Positions 3,805-63,223 of a stretch of DNA of 64,000 bases are shown one piece after another. The first letter of the stretch is position 1. Each line of letters opens with the position of its first letter. A program made the translations under genes and the position numbers. Below the pieces are notes generated by a model. That model had not been told where the DNA came from, did no database searches, and was given only the letters and a program-made list of their open reading frames with translations. Source of the stretch: Candidatus Omnitrophota bacterium (GTDB lineage Bacteria; Omnitrophota; Gorgyraeia; Zapsychrales; JBAZNR01); the NCBI GenBank assembly GCA_041649175.1, contig JBAZNR010000003.1:207449-271448 (forward strand), written 5' to 3'.

Positions 3805-5760
3805 ATGTTCTCAAAACCTCCACTGCTACCTCTGCATTTACGAAATCAAATTTGGCGCCCCGTTATTTTATTTTTCTTTTTTGTCCTCGTTGTGCTGATT
3901 TCTAATAGCCGGATACTTGACCCTTATGAAAACATTTTTTTAGACCTACGTTTTAAATCTCGCCCGATCCAACCGTTCTCCGATAAAATTGTCCTCATTG
4001 AATTATCCGACGACAGCATTCAGCAGTTAGGCTTTTGGCCTATTCCGAGGGATTTTCATGCTAGCCTTATCGATGTTTTAAAGCAAAGCGGTGTTAGGCA
4101 GGTGATGTTTGATCTTATTTTTACCGACGCGAGCCAAGAGGATGATAAATTCTATACGTCGATAAAAAATGCGGGAAATGTTTATCTTCCGTTTGTTCTT
4201 CAGCCTGACGAAGAGAAAAAATCAAATGCTTTTGTAAGTGCTCAAAATATTGTTGCGCCGCTTTTGCCCAGATTTACTTCCGTTATTGCCGGCTCAGGAC
4301 ACATCAATTCTTTTAAAGATAGCGATGGGAAAACCCGCTGGTCGCCTTTATTTATCCAATTTCAAGGTAAGAATTATCCCCAGATCACCTTGCGCATGGC
4401 TTGTGATTATCTCGGGATCCCTTTTGAGCCGATCAGCTATTCTGGCGGTTTTATTTCGATTGGTAACAAGCTGAAGATTCCAACGCTTCCCAATGGCTCC
4501 ATGCTGGTCAATTACGCGGGGCGTTGGCAGGATACATTTCGTCATTATTCTTATGTGGATATTTTGGCCGCCTGGCAAGAAGCACAAAACGGAGAAAAAC
4601 CGCGCATTGATTTAAACAGCTTGAAAGATTCGGTGTGTTTTGTTGGGTTAACAGCGACGGGAACGCCCGACTTGCAGGCTATTCCTTTTCAGAATAATTA
4701 TCCGCTGGTCGGTTTGCACGCGAATGTTCTTAATAGTATTTTGCTTGATCGATATATTCATCGCGCCGGGCGAACCATAAACTGTATCATTCTTTTTGTA
4801 TTTTTACTGATCGTTTTGGCAACACATTTTCTTAAAAAGAATCAGCCGATCATTGCTTTGGCGGCAACTGTATTTTATTCCGCCGTATTTGCGGCGGTTG
4901 CGTTCGGTGTTTTTATTTTCTTTGGGATCTGGATCGATCTTTTTTATCCCTTGATGGTCACCGGCCTTGCTTACATCGGCGTAACGATCTATGACTTGTT
5001 CCAGGAAGGGAAAAAGCGTGAACTTTTAGAAAAAGAATTATCGATCGCCAAAACGATCCAGGAAAGCTTTTTACCTCTTCCTATTGAGAAATTTCATAGC
5101 GCACAGATCGCGGCACATATGACGCCCGCAAAACATGTTGGGGGTGATTTTTATGATATGCGTGTTTTGGAAAATGAGAGGATCGGAGTTTTGATCGGTG
5201 ATGTGTCCGGTAAAGGCGTCGGTGCGGCCTTGGTCATGGCGGAGGCGATCTCGCTTTTTCGTATGCTTGTCCATCAGATTGAGGAGCCGAGTAGCTTGTT
5301 GACTCGGCTAAATGAGGAGATCGTTAAAGATAGCAAATCCAATGTATTTATAACGGCGGTCTATCTGGTTTTTGACCCAAGATCAAAAAAAATCTCTATG
5401 TCGAGCGCTGGCCATGTGGCGCCGATCTTGTTTCAGGGGGCGGAGAATAAAATCCATAAAGTTGAATTCTCCGGTGGAATGCCGCTTGGGCTAATGTCCG
5501 GGGCGGAATTTTCACAGGAAGAGGTTATTTTGGGTAAAGGGGATGAAATTGTTTTGTGTACGGATGGTGTTTTAGAGGCGCGGAATCCTAAGAAAGAAGA
5601 GTTTGGTGAAGAGCGGCTTTTTTCTATTTTGAAGAAAACACGTTTGCAAGCGGCGAAAGATGTTCTGCGGGCAATTGAAGGGGAAATCAAGATTTTTGCC
5701 GGCAAGGCGCGTTATCATGATGATTTTACTCTTGTTGTTTTAAAAGAGGGCGATGGATGA
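3805..5760 (+). CDS. CHASE2 sensor domain fused to a PP2C/SpoIIE-family Ser phosphatase (RsbU-like)
   Basis: N-terminal TM, then an extracytoplasmic domain of about 300 aa, then 3-4 TM segments (CHASE2 topology). C-terminal PP2C block 'GGDFYD...GDVSGKGVGAALVMA...CTDGVLEA...HDDFTLVV'. Confidence 0.6.
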   Translation: MFSKPPLLPLHLRNQIWRPVILFFFFVLVVLISNSRILDPYENIFLDLRFKSRPIQPFSDKIVLIELSDDSIQQLGFWPIPRDFHASLIDVLKQSGVRQVMFDLIFTDASQEDDKFYTSIKNAGNVYLPFVLQPDEEKKSNAFVSAQNIVAPLLPRFTSVIAGSGHINSFKDSDGKTRWSPLFIQFQGKNYPQITLRMACDYLGIPFEPISYSGGFISIGNKLKIPTLPNGSMLVNYAGRWQDTFRHYSYVDILAAWQEAQNGEKPRIDLNSLKDSVCFVGLTATGTPDLQAIPFQNNYPLVGLHANVLNSILLDRYIHRAGRTINCIILFVFLLIVLATHFLKKNQPIIALAATVFYSAVFAAVAFGVFIFFGIWIDLFYPLMVTGLAYIGVTIYDLFQEGKKRELLEKELSIAKTIQESFLPLPIEKFHSAQIAAHMTPAKHVGGDFYDMRVLENERIGVLIGDVSGKGVGAALVMAEAISLFRMLVHQIEEPSSLLTRLNEEIVKDSKSNVFITAVYLVFDPRSKKISMSSAGHVAPILFQGAENKIHKVEFSGGMPLGLMSGAEFSQEEVILGKGDEIVLCTDGVLEARNPKKEEFGEERLFSILKKTRLQAAKDVLRAIEGEIKIFAGKARYHDDFTLVVLKEGDG

Positions 5761-5772
5761 TAGGGGTGAGGC

Positions 5773-6195
5773 GTGTCCGAAGAGTTAGTTTCTGGCTTTA
5801 GGGTGAGCCATCAGGCTATTGTAGATATTTTTGACAGGACTCAGCTGGTTGCTCGTTCCTATCTTCAAGCAAAACCGTTTATTCGTGAAATGGAGGCTAT
5901 TCTTTTAGTCCATTTTAACCATCAGGATAAGGAGTTATTTGATCGATTGCGCGAGCTGTTTCGCTCAGACCGAGAATCTGAGAAAATGATCGAATTTTTA
6001 ACCCACGATCTCAAGGATATTAAAATAAAGTTCCTTATCTTTTTTGAAAAACATTCCGGAGAAGTCCTGGATACCAATTGGCGTAGTTTTCCCGTAGATT
6101 TCCTGCAATTTCATCGCGAAGTGCTTGCCAGGATTAAAGTTGAAGAAAGTTACCTTTTCCCACTCATTGTAAAATTACCCTCCAAAGCGCCTTAG
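5773..6195 (+). CDS. Hypothetical protein, possibly a hemerythrin-like HHE cation-binding domain
   Basis: GTG start; helical protein with spaced His/Glu pairs (HFNHQDKE..., HREVLARIKVEE); weak. Confidence 0.3.
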   Translation: MSEELVSGFRVSHQAIVDIFDRTQLVARSYLQAKPFIREMEAILLVHFNHQDKELFDRLRELFRSDRESEKMIEFLTHDLKDIKIKFLIFFEKHSGEVLDTNWRSFPVDFLQFHREVLARIKVEESYLFPLIVKLPSKAP

Positions 6196-6312
6196 CACGG
6201 AAACCGATTTCCCAGGAACACAGGCTTTTACCTCAAAAAAAATCCCTGCCAACTTGCCATTTGGCATTTCATCGGCTATACTTAAGTTGACAATTAGGTA
6301 CAGTCGAATAAC

Positions 6313-6410
6313 ACTCGATTGATAAGGGCAAACCATCCGAAAGGATGGGACGCAAAACTATAGAGTCCACACCTTTGGCGCAAGTCAAAGACGGATAGTC
6401 AGTTGCCGGT
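6313..6410 (+). promoter_or_regulatory. c-di-GMP-I (GEMM) riboswitch aptamer
   Basis: Near-identical to the conserved GEMM-I core 'GGCAAACC-AUCC-GAAA-GGAUGG-GACGCAAAAC'. P2 is a perfect 6-bp stem with a GAAA tetraloop. A P3 hairpin (ACUAU..CC..CUUUG-loop-CAAAG..GG..AUAGU) and a P1 closing stem (CGAUUG/CAGUUG) follow; TTGACA lies at 6287. Confidence 0.7.
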
Positions 6411-6426
6411 TGGGTTTTTTTATGGC

Positions 6427-6459
6427 GCCTACTCCTTATTCATGAGTAGGCATTTTTTT
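6427..6459 (+). terminator. Intrinsic terminator (riboswitch expression platform)
   Basis: 8-bp stem gcctactc/gagtaggc with a 9-nt loop, followed by a run of 7 T. Confidence 0.6.
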
Positions 6460-6479
6460 GGCGTTGGAGATCGTTTGAA

Positions 6480-6526
6480 GGCGCCTGCCCTTATCATAGC
6501 CACGGAAAGGGCAGGCGCCTTTTGTT
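6480..6526 (+). terminator. Second terminator-like hairpin immediately upstream of the RBS
   Basis: Perfect 13-bp stem ggcgcctgccctt/aagggcaggcgcc with a 14-nt loop, followed by ttttgtttt. Confidence 0.5.
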
Positions 6527-6538
6527 TTGGAGAGAAAA

Positions 6539-7279
6539 ATGGAAAAAAAGCTTAAAAAATTAGGAATAACGGTTATCGCGCTGATGGTGTTTTGCGCGCT
6601 ATTTTTGCCAAGCCTTTACGCGCAGGACGCTATTAAGGTAGCGATCATCGATTCCGGCGCGCTAGCTTACGTGGATGGATCTATAAGCTTTACGGATTAT
6701 CCTGCCAATATTGACCCCTTGGATCATGGAACGCAAATCGCAAAGTTGATCCGAAAAGACAATCCTAGCGCTAAACTTTTTATGCTTCAGGTTTGTAGTA
6801 AACAACAGGGAAAGTTCGTTCCTTCCAGGGAAGCTGTTTTTGCGGCGATCAAATGGGCGGTTGATAATCGTGTTGATATCGTCAATATGTCTTTAGTGAT
6901 GCGGTTTGATGAAGTTCTTGAAAAGGCTATCACGAATGCGGCGGTTAAACATGGAATTATTTTTGTTGCGGCGAGCGGCAATCATACGATGGCAAGTCAT
7001 TTTGCGAGTGATGCGAGTGGATATGTTTATAAAGCGAAAAAAGATATAAAGCCCGCTTTTCCTTCTTCCTGTCCTTTTGTTATTTCAGTCGGAGCCATCG
7101 ATCGCCACGGTAAGGTGGCTCCGTATTCCAGTAAAGATAGCGATGTTTATGCGGACGGTCATCATCAGCAACAAGAAGGAACATCTTTTTCCTGCGCCAG
7201 AATTACAGCAAAAGTTGTTCAGATCCTTTCCTCTTATCCGGATGCGCAGAAAAGCGCCATCCTGCAATTACTCTCCTAA
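6539..7279 (+). CDS. Secreted subtilisin-like serine peptidase (S8 family, small)
   Basis: Signal peptide; catalytic-triad motifs 'VAIIDSG' (Asp), 'DHGTQIA' (His), 'GTSFS' (Ser). The ATG at 6539 is preferred over the TTG at 6527 because SD 'ggagag' precedes it. Confidence 0.65.
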   Translation: MEKKLKKLGITVIALMVFCALFLPSLYAQDAIKVAIIDSGALAYVDGSISFTDYPANIDPLDHGTQIAKLIRKDNPSAKLFMLQVCSKQQGKFVPSREAVFAAIKWAVDNRVDIVNMSLVMRFDEVLEKAITNAAVKHGIIFVAASGNHTMASHFASDASGYVYKAKKDIKPAFPSSCPFVISVGAIDRHGKVAPYSSKDSDVYADGHHQQQEGTSFSCARITAKVVQILSSYPDAQKSAILQLLS

Positions 7280-7432: not shown

Positions 7433-8611
7433 ATGATAAGAAAATATGTTTTTCTGCAGGTTTTTCTTCTTGCTTTCTTTCTTTGTGTGGGAATTGCTTT
7501 TTCTGTTAATGCTGCCGATGAGCCTTCCGGAGTAAACACGCCTCAAATCGTCTATGTCCAAGGAGATGTTTCCATCAATCTTTCAGGGGAAGAATGGATT
7601 TCAGCTTCAAAAGGATTAAGCCTTAACGCAAATGCGGCCGTCAAGACTTCTGATGATTCGTACTGCGATATTGCCTTTGATGCTGATCAAAAAAATATTG
7701 TCAGCGTTGGTCCGAATTCCGAGATCAAGATCGGAAGTGATTTTCAGCAGGTGAATATATCAGCGGGGCGCGTGTTTTCGAGGATCCGCGGGCTAAAGGA
7801 AGGTTCTCGCTTTGAAATTGTCACGCCTCAAGCTGTTGCCGGCGTACGAGGGACAGCATGGGAATCTATTGTTACCAGCAAAAGTGAATTTAAGGTTAAA
7901 GAAAATACTGTGTACGTTAACGGGCTTAGCCTAGGCCAAGTGACAACGACAGCCGATGTTTTAGAAGGAAAAGGGATCGAAGTTGGCGATGACGGTAGCT
8001 TGGGTGATCTTTCCGATCTATCTCAGGATGATTTAGATCACATGAATCAATGGTCGGGCCGCATTGATCAAACTCTCGGAAATTCTTCAACTGAAGGGAA
8101 AGATTGGAAAAAGATCGTTGAGAATTATGACGGCGATTCGTCAAATCTTTTTGAAGAAGTTATGCAAGAAGAAGAGGGAGGGTTTGAAGGCGCTTTTGCA
8201 TCCGGCGGAAACGGCAATGAAGGATTTATTCTGGCTCGGACGACAGGAGGAGCCGGAGATGGTGGCGGAATTCCCGGTGGCGATATTGTTCCGGGGTCGT
8301 TTATCGAGCCTCAGGGAGGGTCTGGTGGCAACGGTGGCGGTGGTGGCGGCGGAGTGCATCCGGGGCATGGATGCTATATTGGCCAGCCCAATTGTACCGG
8401 CAACTATTTAATTCCGAAACCATGGCCGGGCCTTAAGCCCAAACCGGTTAAACCGGATAATGCGCATGTTATTCCGGGCAACAATGTCGTGATTGTTAAT
8501 CCGAATATTCCTCAGCCGCCAGCGGATCTAAATTTAGATGCGTGCGTTGATTGCGGCGCAGTGAATGATGTCGCGCAATTAAACAACGAATCAAAGGGTA
8601 AAGGGAAGTAG
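7433..8611 (+). CDS. Secreted FecR-domain-like protein with a Gly-rich low-complexity region and a Pro/Lys-rich C-terminus
   Basis: Signal peptide; N-terminal region resembles a FecR/anti-sigma sensor fold (VYVQGDVSIN...); long GGxGGGGG tract; C-terminal 'PKPWPGLKPKPVKP'. Confidence 0.4.
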   Translation: MIRKYVFLQVFLLAFFLCVGIAFSVNAADEPSGVNTPQIVYVQGDVSINLSGEEWISASKGLSLNANAAVKTSDDSYCDIAFDADQKNIVSVGPNSEIKIGSDFQQVNISAGRVFSRIRGLKEGSRFEIVTPQAVAGVRGTAWESIVTSKSEFKVKENTVYVNGLSLGQVTTTADVLEGKGIEVGDDGSLGDLSDLSQDDLDHMNQWSGRIDQTLGNSSTEGKDWKKIVENYDGDSSNLFEEVMQEEEGGFEGAFASGGNGNEGFILARTTGGAGDGGGIPGGDIVPGSFIEPQGGSGGNGGGGGGGVHPGHGCYIGQPNCTGNYLIPKPWPGLKPKPVKPDNAHVIPGNNVVIVNPNIPQPPADLNLDACVDCGAVNDVAQLNNESKGKGK

Positions 8612-8635
8612 TAGAAATTTTAAAGAGAAGTGTAA

Positions 8636-8675
8636 AGAGCGGCTCCGGCAAAACGCCGGAGCCGCTCTTTTTTTA
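8636..8675 (+). terminator. Rho-independent terminator
   Basis: Perfect 13-bp stem agagcggctccgg/ccggagccgctct with a 7-nt loop, followed by 7 T. Confidence 0.8.
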
Positions 8676-8770
8676 AATCGAAAACTTAATAGTATTTGAC
8701 ACTGATTTATATTTTCCGCTATACTAACTACTAATATTTATTCTCTGGTCAATAGTTTTAAGTTTTACTT

Positions 8771-9982
8771 ATGAAATCAAAACGTTTCCTGATGCTTTCT
8801 ACGGCTTTTCTTTTTTGTTGTTTTGTTCGCCCTGCCTTTTCTGGTCCGGCTACAAAGCCTCTTCTGCCTATTTTTGATTTTCTCAATGATATTGAATATA
8901 CGAGCCGTTTTAAGATTGAATATGACGACAATATTTTCTCTGTCGAGGACAGGCAAGATTCTGATTTCCGCCAGGTTTTTACTCAGGGGCTTAGCTATCG
9001 TCTTCCAAAAGAAAACTACTATTTCGAGTGGGGATACACGGGAAATTATGCTTATTATGATCAAGAAGCCACAGGGCTTTTGGGGCATTCTGCCAATGTC
9101 CTTTATTCCTACCGTCCGTTCAGCAATGTCTCGATAGGTTTGCGCGATGATTATAATTGGCTTGGCGACAGCAAGATCTCCACAACTTTAGGAGACCGTG
9201 TTTTTGCTTTAGGTTATATTCAAAATACTCCGGCCGTCGAAGTCAAATATGAGCTCAGCCCGTCATATACACTAAAGGCGGATACGTATTATCAATTTCT
9301 CGATGTTGTGGATAGCTCCAATGATGACTTTATTGATAATAAACGCGTGGGTATTTCTTCGCAGTTGGAATATAATTTTACACCCCAGAAAAGTTTAGTT
9401 GGATTCTTAGGGCTTGGATATAGCCGCATTGATTTTTCTCAAACTGTTGAGAAGGCTTCGACAACGCAGCGGCTATTCGTTGGGGTGACGGAGAAAATTC
9501 CGGGATTGATCAAACTAACACAAGAAATTGGTTTTGCGGATATCGATATGGAAGAAAACTCCAATATGGATGACGCGAACATCGACTACAAGTTTTCCGC
9601 GGAAACAATTTTTTCCGTTTATACAAAACTTAACCTTGCGATAAATCTTAGCACCAGAAATCCGTCTTTAAGAAGTGATTATACGCAATACACCAGCAAT
9701 GCCGCTGTTTTAGGGGTCAGTCATGTGATCAGCCCAAAAACGTCGGCGGGACTTAGCTATTCTTACGAAGATCAAGATTTTTTGGCTTCGGATGTTTTGA
9801 TCGGTCAGCCCAAAGTGCATAAAAATACGCGTGTTCAAGGCTTGGAATTTGACATCGTTCGTAAAATTAAATCATGGTTGACGCTTGATTTGAAATACGA
9901 ATATACCAAGCGCGATACCGATTTTGAACAAGAAGGGTATATCGACAACAGATACAGCGCTACGTTTACGGTAAAATATTAA
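8771..9982 (+). CDS. Putative outer-membrane beta-barrel protein
   Basis: Signal peptide; alternating amphipathic strands rich in Y/T/S; C-terminal aromatic residue (…TFTVKY). A TTGACA-n18-TATACT promoter lies at 8696-8725. Confidence 0.45.
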   Translation: MKSKRFLMLSTAFLFCCFVRPAFSGPATKPLLPIFDFLNDIEYTSRFKIEYDDNIFSVEDRQDSDFRQVFTQGLSYRLPKENYYFEWGYTGNYAYYDQEATGLLGHSANVLYSYRPFSNVSIGLRDDYNWLGDSKISTTLGDRVFALGYIQNTPAVEVKYELSPSYTLKADTYYQFLDVVDSSNDDFIDNKRVGISSQLEYNFTPQKSLVGFLGLGYSRIDFSQTVEKASTTQRLFVGVTEKIPGLIKLTQEIGFADIDMEENSNMDDANIDYKFSAETIFSVYTKLNLAINLSTRNPSLRSDYTQYTSNAAVLGVSHVISPKTSAGLSYSYEDQDFLASDVLIGQPKVHKNTRVQGLEFDIVRKIKSWLTLDLKYEYTKRDTDFEQEGYIDNRYSATFTVKY

Positions 9983-9986
9983 TCTC

Positions 9987-10550
9987 ATGAAAAAAAATAT
10001 TTTTAGTTTCGGATTGTTGTTTGCAGCGGTGGCAACGCTTATATTCTTAGGGAGTGCCTTGGCACAGGACCAGGAGGAGCCGCAACGCTTGACACAAGAG
10101 GAATTTGCGGTTGAGTTGGTGCGTCAAATGCGCATGGATCAATTGTTGCCAACGGCGGCGTTGCCGAGCGACTGCGTGGAATTGTTAGATCGCATCGGGA
10201 TCGCGCCGCTAAAAGGATGGAACCATAAAGCCTTTTTAACGCGAGAAGAATATTTAGTGATCATGGCCAAGGCTCATGGAAGAGAAGGCATTGTCCATGA
10301 AAAGGCTGTAAGCGTCGAAGAGAAAAACAGGGAAGTTATTAATGTTAAGTGGCAAGAGGCGCAACAGAAGTCCGGACAGTGGTTGTCTTTGGATGAACTG
10401 CTAAATAATCGCGAATATTTTCCTCAAGGCGCGCCGAAAAGTCCCTATGGCGTAAAATATAAAGACGCCAATGGTGACCATAAAGTTGACCCCTTGTTTT
10501 TACCGATCGCTGACTTAATAAAAATGACAGAGATTTTCTCGTCACGTTGA
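9987..10550 (+). CDS. Secreted hypothetical protein
   Basis: Signal peptide ending 'ALAQD'; no recognisable domain. Confidence 0.4.
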   Translation: MKKNIFSFGLLFAAVATLIFLGSALAQDQEEPQRLTQEEFAVELVRQMRMDQLLPTAALPSDCVELLDRIGIAPLKGWNHKAFLTREEYLVIMAKAHGREGIVHEKAVSVEEKNREVINVKWQEAQQKSGQWLSLDELLNNREYFPQGAPKSPYGVKYKDANGDHKVDPLFLPIADLIKMTEIFSSR

Positions 10551-32371: not shown

Positions 32372-33941
<1,570 letters not shown>

Positions 33942-34110
33942 TTTTTTTAATTCTGCGCTTGCGCAAAATTAAGAACAAGAAAGACATTAACCCGAAGTAC
34001 AGTAAGCAAATGAAGAGCAATCAATACTCTTCAATGACTTGGTTTTATTTCTTATCAAAGGCTAGCTACGGGCCCGATTTTGGGCCGATGACTAATCGGC
34101 CGAACAATTA

Positions 34111-34183
34111 GGGCCCATAGCTCATCTGGTAGAGCACCGTGCTGATAACGCGGGGGTGAGTGGTTCGAGTCCACTTGGGCCCA
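34111..34183 (+). tRNA. tRNA-Ile (anticodon GAU)
   Basis: Cloverleaf with acceptor GGGCCCA/UGGGCCC, anticodon loop cuGAUaa, T-loop GGTTCGAGTCC; CCA not encoded. Confidence 0.85.
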
Positions 34184-34291
34184 TGATTTTTGTTTGCAGT
34201 GCAAACAAAAATCACTCCGAGAGAGCGATAGCGACCGAGGAGCAACCATTAAAGATATTCGTGATAGAATATTTAATCTTATGGAATTCAC

Positions 34292-34367
34292 GGGGCTGTA
34301 GCTCAGCTGGGAGAGCACCTGCTTTGCAAGCAGGGGGTCAGGAGTTCGATCCTCCTCAGCTCCACCA
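34292..34367 (+). tRNA. tRNA-Ala (anticodon UGC)
   Basis: GGGGCUGUAGCUCAG...UUGCAA...GGUUCGAUCC...CUCCACCA; G3:U70 present; CCA encoded. Confidence 0.9.
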
Positions 34368-34560
34368 ATTTTTACTTTGATAAGATATTTAAAATAAACA
34401 GCTTTAAAAATGACAGCAGGATAAAAAGCTTTTCTTTGCATGTTATGAACACGTGCAAAATCGCTCTTTGACAATTACGCAACAAAGGTAAAGGCACACA
34501 AATAAAGCCGTATATTCATGTTTGTTTTGTCGCAAGATGAAACAAATATAATTAATTATT

Positions 34561-37536
<2,976 letters not shown>

Positions 37537-37606
37537 TGGTATTATTCTTATCATATGTGAACACAATACGGCTTTCGCTTTTGTTGCGTAATTGTCAGGA
37601 ATATTT

Positions 37607-37723
37607 CTCGGTAACATTACTAGAGGGGCAACACCCGTTCCCATACCGAATACGGAAGTTAAGCCCTCTAAGGTCGATGGTACTCTAGTCGTAAGGCTAT
37701 GGGAGAGTAGAAAGTTACCGGGT
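37607..37723 (+). rRNA. rrf: 5S ribosomal RNA
   Basis: Helix I CUCGGUAAC/GUUACCGGG; 'CCGAAUACGGAAGUUAAGC' loop C/helix III region; length about 117. Confidence 0.8.
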
Positions 37724-62044: not shown

Positions 62045-63223
62045 ATGCCCGTCAATTATAAGAAAGAACTCGAATCCGCCAGCAGGTCAATGATCCTCAT
62101 CCATGAGCCGAAAACGCTCATCAAGCTCATTGTGCGTATGATCGTGCGCAAAGTGCAAATAAAGCACGCGGCCATGATCCTATTCGATCCGCAAAAAGAC
62201 GCTTACGTTTTGACCATCTCCAAAGGCGAAACCGGAATAAAGATCCCAGCCGGTTTCGCGCGCTTCGACCGCAATAATCCTCTCATTAAACTTTTTACGC
62301 AAAGAAATGTCAAGCTTCCTGGTAACCGTGACGCGCTTTTAGTTCACGATTTAAACACGCTGCTTTGGCAAGACAGTGTTATAAAAAACGGCAATGGCGA
62401 TGCAAAAGAATTCTTGCACACGGTCGGCCAGCAATTGCAGATGTTTAACGCGGTGGCGTGTGTTCCGGCGTATTTTCAAGATTCGCTTTTAGCTCTTCTT
62501 CTTTTAGGCGAGAAAACGGACGCGACGGGCTTTGACCAAGAAGAATTGGGATTTTTCTCAGCGCTGGCGTCTGATGTCGCCATGGCTATTAAAAACGCCC
62601 AGCTTTTCGATGATCTTAAAAAAGAAGCCGAGCGTAACCGAAGCCTTTTTATCCGCACCACCATTGCCTTGGCGTCCGCCATTGAAGCCAAAGATAAATA
62701 CACGCGCGGCCATACCGAGCGGGTTACCAAATATTCTTTGGCGATAGCTCGTCAAATGGCCGAAAATAAAAGCGTTAATTTTGAAGCGTCTTTTTTTGAA
62801 AATCTTTATATTGCCGGACTTTTGCATGATATCGGTAAAATAGCTATTCCTGAAGCCATTCTTTGCAAGACCGATAAATTAACGGCGGAAGAATTTGAAA
62901 TTATGAAACAGCATCCCGTGCGCGGAGTTGAAATTTTGCGCCCTATTACCGAGTTTGAAGATTGTATTCACGGAGTGAAATATCATCACGAACGCTATGA
63001 CGGGAAAGGTTACCCCGAAGGATTGAAAGGGGAAGATATTCCGATGACGGCGGCTGTTATTGCCGTTGCCGACACCTTTGATGCCATGACGACCAACCGC
63101 ACTTATCGTAAAGCCCTCACCAAAGACGAAGCCATCACTGAGATCAAGAAAAACTCCGGTATTCAATTTAACCCCAAGCCCGCCCGGGCTATTGTGGAGT
63201 TGTTTGAGAAGGGGAAGATTTAG
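62045..63223 (+). CDS. GAF domain fused to HD-GYP phosphohydrolase (putative c-di-GMP phosphodiesterase)
   Basis: 'GLLHDIGKIAIP' HD motif and 'HHERYDGKGYPEGL' GYP motif; N-terminal GAF-like region. Confidence 0.75.
   Translation: MPVNYKKELESASRSMILIHEPKTLIKLIVRMIVRKVQIKHAAMILFDPQKDAYVLTISKGETGIKIPAGFARFDRNNPLIKLFTQRNVKLPGNRDALLVHDLNTLLWQDSVIKNGNGDAKEFLHTVGQQLQMFNAVACVPAYFQDSLLALLLLGEKTDATGFDQEELGFFSALASDVAMAIKNAQLFDDLKKEAERNRSLFIRTTIALASAIEAKDKYTRGHTERVTKYSLAIARQMAENKSVNFEASFFENLYIAGLLHDIGKIAIPEAILCKTDKLTAEEFEIMKQHPVRGVEILRPITEFEDCIHGVKYHHERYDGKGYPEGLKGEDIPMTAAVIAVADTFDAMTTNRTYRKALTKDEAITEIKKNSGIQFNPKPARAIVELFEKGKI

Follow-up and report, generated by a model that had tools for sequence, protein, structure and literature searches.

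The gene for a minimal secreted S8 serine peptidase in a Candidatus Omnitrophota bacterium is preceded by a leader in which a cyclic di-GMP class I (c-di-GMP-I, or GEMM-I) riboswitch aptamer is followed by two tandem intrinsic terminators, T1 and T2. The leader lies on the forward (+) strand of a 64,000-nucleotide (nt) stretch of contig JBAZNR010000003.1 (hereafter the window; coordinates are window positions unless a locus is named). We propose, as the probable reading, that it works as a kinetic transcriptional OFF switch. Cyclic di-GMP (c-di-GMP) would free the terminators and turn the gene off; in the ligand-free RNA, a strand from the 5′ core of the aptamer (strand J, UGAUAAGGGCA) would serve as a transient antiterminator. 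The proposal is carried by the identity and conservation of the aptamer, by the hairpins, by the complementarity between J and the hairpins and the conservation of that complementarity, by one compensatory change, and by the order in which the RNA is predicted to fold.

Results

The leader was compared with its counterparts on Omnitrophota-type contigs, which came from a metagenome scan (loci L081–L088) and from ten exact-protein look-ups (L161–L170). The window and 17 of these loci (L081–L087 and L161–L170) make up a set of 18 leaders. The aptamer is present in seven of the eight metagenome loci (L081–L087), and in 17 of 17 loci with a close S8 orthologue it stands about 60–250 nt 5′ of the gene. 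An earlier reading of the window from its letters (the original prediction) had proposed an aptamer, two hairpins and an S8 gene in this order, and the same architecture of aptamer, terminators and S8 gene recurs in the 17 other loci. A search of genome contigs with generic subtilase peptide patterns taken from the S8 alignment gave, among the matches listed, only distant subtilases of 24–37% identity. The whole 254-nt leader of the window folds more stably than expected (z = −4.18 against shuffles), and none of 200 shuffles folded as well.

The aptamer belongs to the c-di-GMP-I clan. In a whole-window cmscan with Rfam 15, where clan competition leaves only the best-scoring family of each clan, the one riboswitch match was RF03167 (c-di-GMP-I-GGC) at 6318–6411(+), with 62.3 bits against a gathering score of 59 (E = 2.6e-12). 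The clan that had been predicted is thus confirmed above threshold, and the best model is RF03167, not the RF01051 originally named. When the segment 6280–6440 was scanned at gathering thresholds, one further overlapping family of the same clan (CL00126) also passed. This second family is almost certainly RF01051, because the gathering threshold of RF01051 is only 35 bits and the window is without the U/U bases of the UAU variant. The aptamer of L167 is nearly identical and scores 72.4 bits with RF01051 (gathering 35). From there the orthologous aptamers range down to about 30 bits; L161, L164 and L170 give no Rfam match, their aptamers being cut by the contig end or carrying large insertions, and are plainly visible all the same.

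The core elements run in the order AUUGAUAAGGGCAAACC-AUCC-GAAA-GGAU-GGGACGCAAAACU...GGAUAGUCAGUUGCCGGUU, after which comes a run of seven T. The GAAA-capped hairpin that had been noted is present as CCAUCC-GAAA-GGAUGG at 6333–6348, with its tetraloop at 6339–6342, and so is the linker, GGGACGCAAAAC at 6347–6358. RNAalifold on 11 insertion-free orthologous aptamers gave 29 consensus pairs, 13 of them with compensatory double changes, and these are spread over P1, P1a and P1b. The consensus structure includes a P1 of 8 base pairs (bp), CUCGAUUG / CCGGUUGAG; in the window this helix is weak, with G-U in four of its eight pairs. A second aptamer considered at 1305 (GATAAAGGCAAAT) was discarded: it lies within a coding region, and a core regular expression finds only the site at 6325 in the window.

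The residues that would touch the ligand are canonical. By the cmscan alignment the equivalents of G20, A47 and C92 are G6327, A6354 and C6406, and all three are invariant in all aligned orthologues; the numbering is that of Vc2, which we take from established structural knowledge and anchor on C44 of GGGAC44-G45-C46-A47. Where the RF03167 consensus has ACGC-G-AA, ACGC-A-AA is found in the window and in every orthologue, with A at position 47; going by the model consensus, we take ‘GGC’ to stand for G20/G47/C92. The 3′,3′-cyclic GMP-AMP (cGAMP) riboswitch (GEMM-Ib) is marked by A, not G, at position 20. Here G6327 is kept in all orthologues and only position 19 varies (G to A, in L167 and L169). 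Because the site has the canonical G20/A47/C92 and neither G47 nor A20, we file the RNA as c-di-GMP-I. Judged by its sequence it is a genuine c-di-GMP-I riboswitch, which would bind c-di-GMP, and the top score of RF03167 is probably a scoring quirk, due to lineage-specific similarity elsewhere in the model. With their canonical A47, the window and most orthologous aptamers score higher with RF03167 than with RF01051, and automated annotation would call them the variant class. Since RF03167 can outscore RF01051 on canonical sites, ‘GGC variant’ calls need a check of position 47.

Both hairpins of the original prediction are there. The T1 stem of 8 bp is perfect (100% complementary by repeat finder) and is followed by A and seven T, with a hairpin energy of −11 to −13 kcal/mol. 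The GC-rich 13-bp core described for T2 (6480–6492 / 6507–6519) is part of a perfect stem of 15 bp (100% complementary; 15–16 bp in all) with a hairpin energy of −28.6 to −32.5 kcal/mol. Each is a G+C-rich hairpin with an immediate U-tract, as in an intrinsic terminator, and termination is predicted at both. A T1-like hairpin with its T-run is found in all leaders, and when the 18 loci are aligned, compensatory changes appear in five of its eight pairs. A second hairpin, again with a T-run, stands just 5′ of the Shine–Dalgarno sequence (SD) in most of them; a single terminator is found only in L166, L167 and L168, and in L163 the second element seems to sequester the SD. Neither terminator shares sequence with the aptamer, P1 included. 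All of them can therefore be folded at the same time, and this is the layout of an OFF switch.

What, then, could keep the terminators from forming? T1 and T2 show unusual sequence conservation in their 5′ arms (GCCURCYCUUAU), and for this reason all aptamer 9-mers were scanned, without bias, against the downstream leader. Strand J of the window scored highest of the aptamer segments. With each aptamer set against its own leader, the duplex of UUGAUAAGGGCAAAC from strand J ranked first or close to first in most loci, and the J duplexes always fell at the junction between the 5′ arm and the loop of a terminator. In the window, the repeat finder pairs TGATAAGGGCA of J with TGCCCTTATCA of T2 at 6486–6496 over 11 nt with 100% complementarity, in the register 6320+i / 6496−i; this site, UGCCCUUAUCA, lies in the 5′ arm and loop. 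T1 offers J the site UCCUUAUU at 6433–6440, with 8 contiguous pairs. The J:T2 duplex is worth −17.1 kcal/mol, whereas dinucleotide-shuffled leaders (500 shuffles) average −9.1 (p = 0.002), and the motif GCCTRCYCTTAT is found nowhere else in the 64-kb window.

The complementarity holds across the set of leaders. Over their 33 hairpins the longest J-complementary run averages 8.2 nt, compared with 5.05 in shuffled hairpins, and runs of at least 8 nt occur in 67% of the hairpins as against 2.5% of the shuffles. Every one of the 18 leaders has at least one hairpin with a J complement of at least 8 nt. A Fisher combination of the per-locus shuffle tests gives p ~2e-8, a value that overstates the independence of the data because the loci are related. 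There is also a compensatory change. Where L167 and L169 have AUAAAGG for AUAAGGG in the core (G19 to A), each of the three hairpins in these two loci has CUUUAUC for CYCUUAUC, so that a G-C pair is exchanged for A-U. J leaves little room for more covariation because, nearly invariant, it forms the binding pocket.

The original prediction had also supposed that alternative pairings would arise from the shared starts of the two hairpins. These starts are real (GGCGCCT at 6424–6430 and 6480–6486, by repeat finder), and alternative pairings do exist; the conserved one, however, joins the 5′ core strand of the aptamer to the arm/loop junction (YGCYCUUAUC) and not to the GGCGCC(T) starts. The pairing of the T1 5′ arm with the T2 3′ arm that these starts would allow is 79% complementary and was predicted in no fold. 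The 11-nt complementarity between 6320–6330 and 6486–6496 had been passed over in that reading, as had the T7 run at 6415–6421.

J cannot serve both partners at once. Within the aptamer, its G21 and C22 pair with C46 and G45 (RNAalifold columns 19/45 and 20/44) and its G20 is a ligand contact; since J holds a ligand contact and core pairs, the folded aptamer and the J:terminator helix are mutually exclusive. Minimum free energy (MFE) folds of the nascent RNA, computed with no ligand term, place the exchange in time. J:T1 is predicted at 3′ ends 6440–6448 and T1 itself from 6452; J:T2, with 11 pairs, is predicted at 3′ ends 6492–6512 and T2 from 6516. Across the loci a J:T helix appears in the nascent MFE for 20 of 28 hairpins; for gene-proximal terminators alone, 15 of 16 loci show it.

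Two other pairings were tried and set aside. A relay between the T1 3′ arm and the T2 5′ arm has seven of eight pairs and one mismatch in the window, fails in L086, L164 and L169, and never appears in nascent folds. An antiterminator between the 3′ aptamer strand GGRYAGUC and the T1 arm GCCUAC, in the style of the Cd1 riboswitch discussed below, fits about 10 loci and not 6, the U/C variation being unmatched by A/G.

The T7 run directly after P1 in the window has counterparts elsewhere. Six of the 18 leaders (window, L162, L164, L166, L169 and L170) have a U-run of 5–7 nt that begins 0–1 nt after the extended P1. Polymerase may pause there and so leave the ligand time to bind, or the run could make an aptamer-embedded terminator together with a ligand-stabilised P1 of 8–9 bp. 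Both roles fit an OFF switch. This group includes all four insertion-bearing aptamers.

The S8 gene would be the target of this switch. The prediction of a secreted minimal S8 peptidase is upheld by a Pfam match in the window, and the gene stays with the leader in every orthologous locus examined. The product of 246 residues is 100% identical to a protein recorded as ‘S8 family serine peptidase [Candidatus Omnitrophota bacterium]’, and 36 further proteins match at E ≤ 0.001. About 34 of the homologues are close and of similar size (most about 230–265 residues); the few named S8 homologues are all from Omnitrophota-type metagenome-assembled genomes (MAGs). Catalytic D38, H63 and S216, as well as N148, are invariant in 18 homologues and stand in the subtilisin order, and the family profile matches the domain of mature subtilisin BPN′ from end to end (E = 4.6e-22). 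By eye, a Sec signal peptide (MEKKLKKLGITVIALMVFCALFLPSLYA/QD) is followed only about 7 residues later by the catalytic Asp, with no I9-type propeptide, which makes ‘minimal secreted subtilase’ a fair label. The family (6539–7279 and homologues P0002–P0035) also has an invariant Cys, C86 in MLQVC. Its best matches in the Protein Data Bank include 266-residue subtilisin BPN′ entries, which we take to be calcium-loop-deleted variants.

Next downstream come genes for a FecR/LipL45-like protein and a putative beta-barrel protein. Because these have their own strong promoter-like sites and differ between orthologous loci, the S8 gene is the conserved regulated target.

Table 1. Positions of the riboswitch leader, its target gene and related features (window positions; box copies in the numbering of each locus).
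Feature	Position	Strand	Description
Promoter	6254-6282	+	−35 TTGCCA (6254-6259), 17-nt spacer, −10 TATACT (6277-6282); 10/12 consensus matches
TTGACAATT box	6287-6295	+	Conserved across leaders; not a −35 element
c-di-GMP-I (GEMM-I) aptamer	6314-6414	+	Extended 8-bp P1 (6314-6321 / 6407-6414), P1a 6333-6348, P1b ~6357-6404
Strand J (UGAUAAGGGCA)	6320-6330	+	5′ core strand of the aptamer, including G20-C22; proposed antiterminator
T7 run	6415-6421	+	Immediately 3′ of P1; sequence reading
Terminator T1	6427-6459	+	Stem GCCUACUC / GAGUAGGC (6427-6434 / 6444-6451), 9-nt loop, A, U7 (6453-6459)
Terminator T2	6477-6528	+	Stem AAGGCGCCUGCCCUU / AAGGGCAGGCGCCUU (6478-6492 / 6507-6521), 14-nt loop, U-tract UUUUGUUUU (6520-6528)
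Shine-Dalgarno GGAGAG; start ATG	6529-6534; 6539-6541	+	Sequence reading; product identical over its full length to P0001
S8 serine peptidase, 246 residues	6539-7279	+	Pfam PF00082, 76 bits (cut-off 21.8)
GAF + HD-GYP protein, putative c-di-GMP phosphodiesterase	62045-63223	+	Pfam HD_5 (E = 7.7e-39) and GAF; HD and GYP motifs visible
TTGACAATT(T/A) box copies	L081 2704-2712; L082 377-385; L083 276-284; L085 1932-1940		
TTGACAATT(T/A) box copies, continued	L086 2790-2798; L162 2092-2100; L164 2192-2199; L169 1758-1765		

Transcription is predicted to start near 6289. The original prediction began its interval at 6287, with a TTGACA that is not the promoter; the conserved promoter is TTGCCA-N17-TATACT at 6254–6282, and its general form, CTTGyc-N17/18-TATACTT, stands 5′ of the aptamer in all 16 loci with available 5′ flank. 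The TTGACA belongs to a conserved element, the TTGACAATT box. In the window and eight orthologous loci, TGACAATT lies 25–30 nt 5′ of the TTGATAA of the aptamer. The spacing of the box to the aptamer is fixed, but that to the −10 hexamer, or to any −10-like hexamer, varies, which excludes a role as a −35 element. Nor does it seem to pair with the 5′ strand of P1, a helix worth only about −2.5 kcal/mol and missing from most MFE folds. The box is near-palindromic (ATTG-A-CAAT) and similar to the J strand (UUGAYAA), and might act either in the DNA, as an operator to which a protein binds, or as an element of the RNA.

T1 and T2 look like copies of one module (6418–6470 and 6474–6533), with direct repeats TTTTATGGCGCCT / TTTGAAGGCGCCT before the hairpins and TTTGGCGTTGGAGA / TTTTGTTTTGGAGA after them; an SD-like GGAGA (6466–6470) is thus found 3′ of T1 as well. 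By eye, a TTG at 6475 starts a 26-codon frame across T2.

The aptamers themselves vary in size. Four of them (L162 ~2113–2270, L164 2216–2402, L166 ~2272–2433 and L170 ~1–178, with the 5′ end cut) have two extra hairpins (~55–85 nt) inserted between GGGRC and GCAAAAC, that is, at C44/G45, and keep P1 and the other aptamer parts. These score 30–35 bits or are missed by Rfam, the fold of L164 has z = −6.3, and the group looks like a five-way-junction variant of GEMM-I. In L087 (710–846) and L168 (1253–1384), P1a is branched by an insertion of 40–50 nt and the AUCCGAAAGGAU tetraloop hairpin is retained. L167 has a second c-di-GMP-I match (RF01051, 43.3 bits) at 4167–4226, about 2.4 kb downstream of the S8 gene and near the contig end.

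Around the S8 gene the window (3805–6195 and 7433–10550) shares its gene order with L162, L164, L167 and L169: upstream, a CHASE2-SpoIIE (PP2C) phosphatase and a small hemerythrin-like protein; downstream, the FecR/LipL45-like protein, the putative beta-barrel (BBP2_2 or like a PEP-CTERM-associated outer membrane protein) and a protein of about 185 residues. The HD-GYP gene that had been pointed out exists, about 55.5 kb downstream, as circumstantial context only: all that it shows is a capacity for c-di-GMP turnover in the genome. GGDEF and EAL motifs were looked for in the long open reading frames of the window, and none was found. A complete rRNA operon lies at 32372–37723, with 16S, two tRNAs (34111–34183 and 34292–34364), 23S and 5S genes.

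Discussion

The mechanism that we propose would run as follows. As transcription proceeds from the TTGCCA/TATACT promoter, the aptamer would emerge first. If c-di-GMP binds, J would be locked in the aptamer, T1 and T2 would fold freely, and RNA polymerase would stop before the S8 gene, with T2 catching any read-through of T1. If it does not, the weak P1 and the junction would stay open and J would pair with T1 over 8 bp and then with T2 over 11 bp, the J:T helix acting as an alternative closing helix in place of P1. Such pairing would delay nucleation of each hairpin until the polymerase has cleared the U-tracts, and the protease would be made. The original prediction left the sign of regulation unstated; J pairing implies that c-di-GMP should turn the protease gene off. 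We infer this direction, along with ligand binding itself and the control of both terminators rather than the gene-proximal one alone, from the features described above. A further step is possible, though we think it doubtful: J might be handed from T1 to the better-matched T2, so that one ligand decision would be checked at two termination points, or at three with the U-run after P1. If so, the serial check by one strand would make an OFF switch of very low leak, and ligand-bound P1 with its U7 would be the first terminator, embedded in the aptamer.

Several points weigh against this mechanism. At equilibrium both terminators beat the antiterminator helices (T2 about −30 against −17 kcal/mol), and the model therefore depends on kinetics, for which the folding order is a prediction. 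J reaches only 2–3 stem nt of T1, plus loop nt, as against 9 stem nt of T2, and even in T2 of the window the outer 8 bp (AAGGCGCC / GGCGCCUU) lie outside its coverage. The nascent MFE makes no use of J:T1 in 7 of 12 two-terminator loci, and T1 may be weakly regulated, unregulated or constitutive. The covariation between J and its targets comes from one position that changed in two loci only, possibly sister lineages. A consensus terminator scan listed neither T1 nor T2, because it accepts loops of 3–8 nt and theirs have 9 and 14. Finally, the RF01051 bit score given here is that of L167, not of the window itself.

The difference between the two terminators invites the thought that T2 alone is controlled by the riboswitch, and that T1 is a constitutive partial attenuator or the end of an aptamer RNA of about 165 nt that could have a role by itself, for example as a small RNA that binds c-di-GMP. 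The stem coverage by J (9 nt in T2, 2 in T1) speaks for it, as does nascent pairing, predicted with T1 in 5 of the 12 loci that have two terminators, compared with 15 of 16 loci for the gene-proximal terminator; moreover, L166, L167 and L168 manage with one terminator. We nevertheless think it unlikely. Terminator loops normally drift, yet CUUAU at the arm/loop junction of T1 is kept in nearly all T1 hairpins; T1 of L169 shifts to CUUUAUC together with the core strand, a change not easily understood if J and T1 never come together; and a strong constitutive T1 would largely silence the gene. The conserved junction could instead mean that a protein or another RNA binds the GCCURCYCUUAU hairpins and that their complementarity to the aptamer is incidental. 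T1 and T2 do resemble tandem duplicates of a module, from the T-run and GGCGCCT to UUGGAGA after the U-tract, and GCCUAC in the stem is conserved beyond the needs of a plain terminator. But the conserved part is exactly the J complement, in constant register, it co-varies with J in L167 and L169, and the motif occurs nowhere else in the window, which leaves this explanation very improbable.

The sign of regulation could also be the reverse, with c-di-GMP preventing termination and inducing the protease. Some GEMM-I riboswitches are ON switches, for example that of pilM (PMC9262584), and the OFF assignment here comes from the pairing pattern. Still, a folded aptamer cannot block terminators with which it has no overlap; their sole conserved competitor is the strand that the ligand-bound aptamer needs; and the U-run right after ligand-stabilised P1 in six leaders points to termination promoted by the ligand. 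We rate an ON switch as improbable. As for the class of the aptamer, the RF03167 match, which has the top score in most orthologues as in the window (62.3 bits), might signal a true c-di-GMP-I-GGC RNA with an altered binding site and possibly another ligand. Against this stand the A at position 47 in the window and every orthologue and the canonical G20 and C92; RF01051, besides, wins outright on L167, and a second family of the clan passes on the window. There is very little in favour of such a variant once position 47 is considered. The OFF switch built on J thus remains the reading that we favour.

Elements of this switch are familiar from other bacteria. Like Vc2 of Vibrio cholerae (RF01051), the aptamer sits in a 5′ untranslated region and has three helices, a GNRA-capped hairpin, AAGGGCAAACC and GGGACGCAAA core strands and G20/A47/C92; unlike it, the window scores slightly better with RF03167, has P1 extended to 8 bp and rich in G-U, and comes from an Omnitrophota MAG. 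With RF03167 it shares a covariance-model score above gathering, the highest obtained, and differs in having A47 where the model consensus has G47. The closest mechanistic likeness is to the Cd1 riboswitch of flgB in Clostridioides difficile, in which aptamer and terminator compete with a transient antiterminator that eventually refolds to the terminator (PMC9262584). In Cd1, as here, aptamer and terminator coexist, the terminator wins at equilibrium and the decision is kinetic (PMC9262584). The strands differ: the Cd1 antiterminator is formed by the 3′ aptamer strand ‘A’ with strand T (PMC9262584), whereas the leader described here would use the 5′ core strand (G20–C22) and has two successive terminators.

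A secreted protease as the target has a precedent too. Class I c-di-GMP riboswitches of C. difficile are generally transcriptional OFF switches, and one of them, directly 5′ of its gene as in the window, controls the secreted protease PPEP-1/ZmpI (CD2830) (PMC11477304). PPEP-1 differs in being a zinc metalloprotease whose adhesin substrates are known; the enzyme of the window is a minimal S8 serine peptidase from an unrelated phylum. The aptamer is thus a member of a well-known class. We found no paper on c-di-GMP riboswitches in Omnitrophota, the ComFB receptor paper (preprint and published) being the only one to mention the phylum with the topic, and no paper that pairs a c-di-GMP riboswitch with a subtilisin or with tandem terminators. 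To our knowledge, what is new is the occurrence in Omnitrophota, the fixed tie to a minimal S8 family, and the matching of a 5′ ligand-contact strand by two tandem terminators.

Nature has supplied a series in these 18 leaders: they differ in the number of terminators (one, two or more), some have a U-run after P1 and others do not, and large insertions are present in some of the aptamers and absent from the rest. In every one the antiterminator would be the 5′ core strand. They offer a test set for how a kinetic OFF switch is built and how tandem terminators sharpen it. For the organisms, the finding extends c-di-GMP riboswitch control to Omnitrophota, which are known almost solely through metagenomes, with a propeptide-less minimal secreted subtilase as its conserved target, and so provides a first handle on the role of c-di-GMP there. 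By analogy with PPEP-1, low c-di-GMP would lead to extracellular or periplasmic proteolysis. The protease would then act at low c-di-GMP, perhaps, if we may speculate, on surface proteins such as the adjacent FecR/LipL45-like product, and by the same analogy it may serve release from a sessile or attached state.

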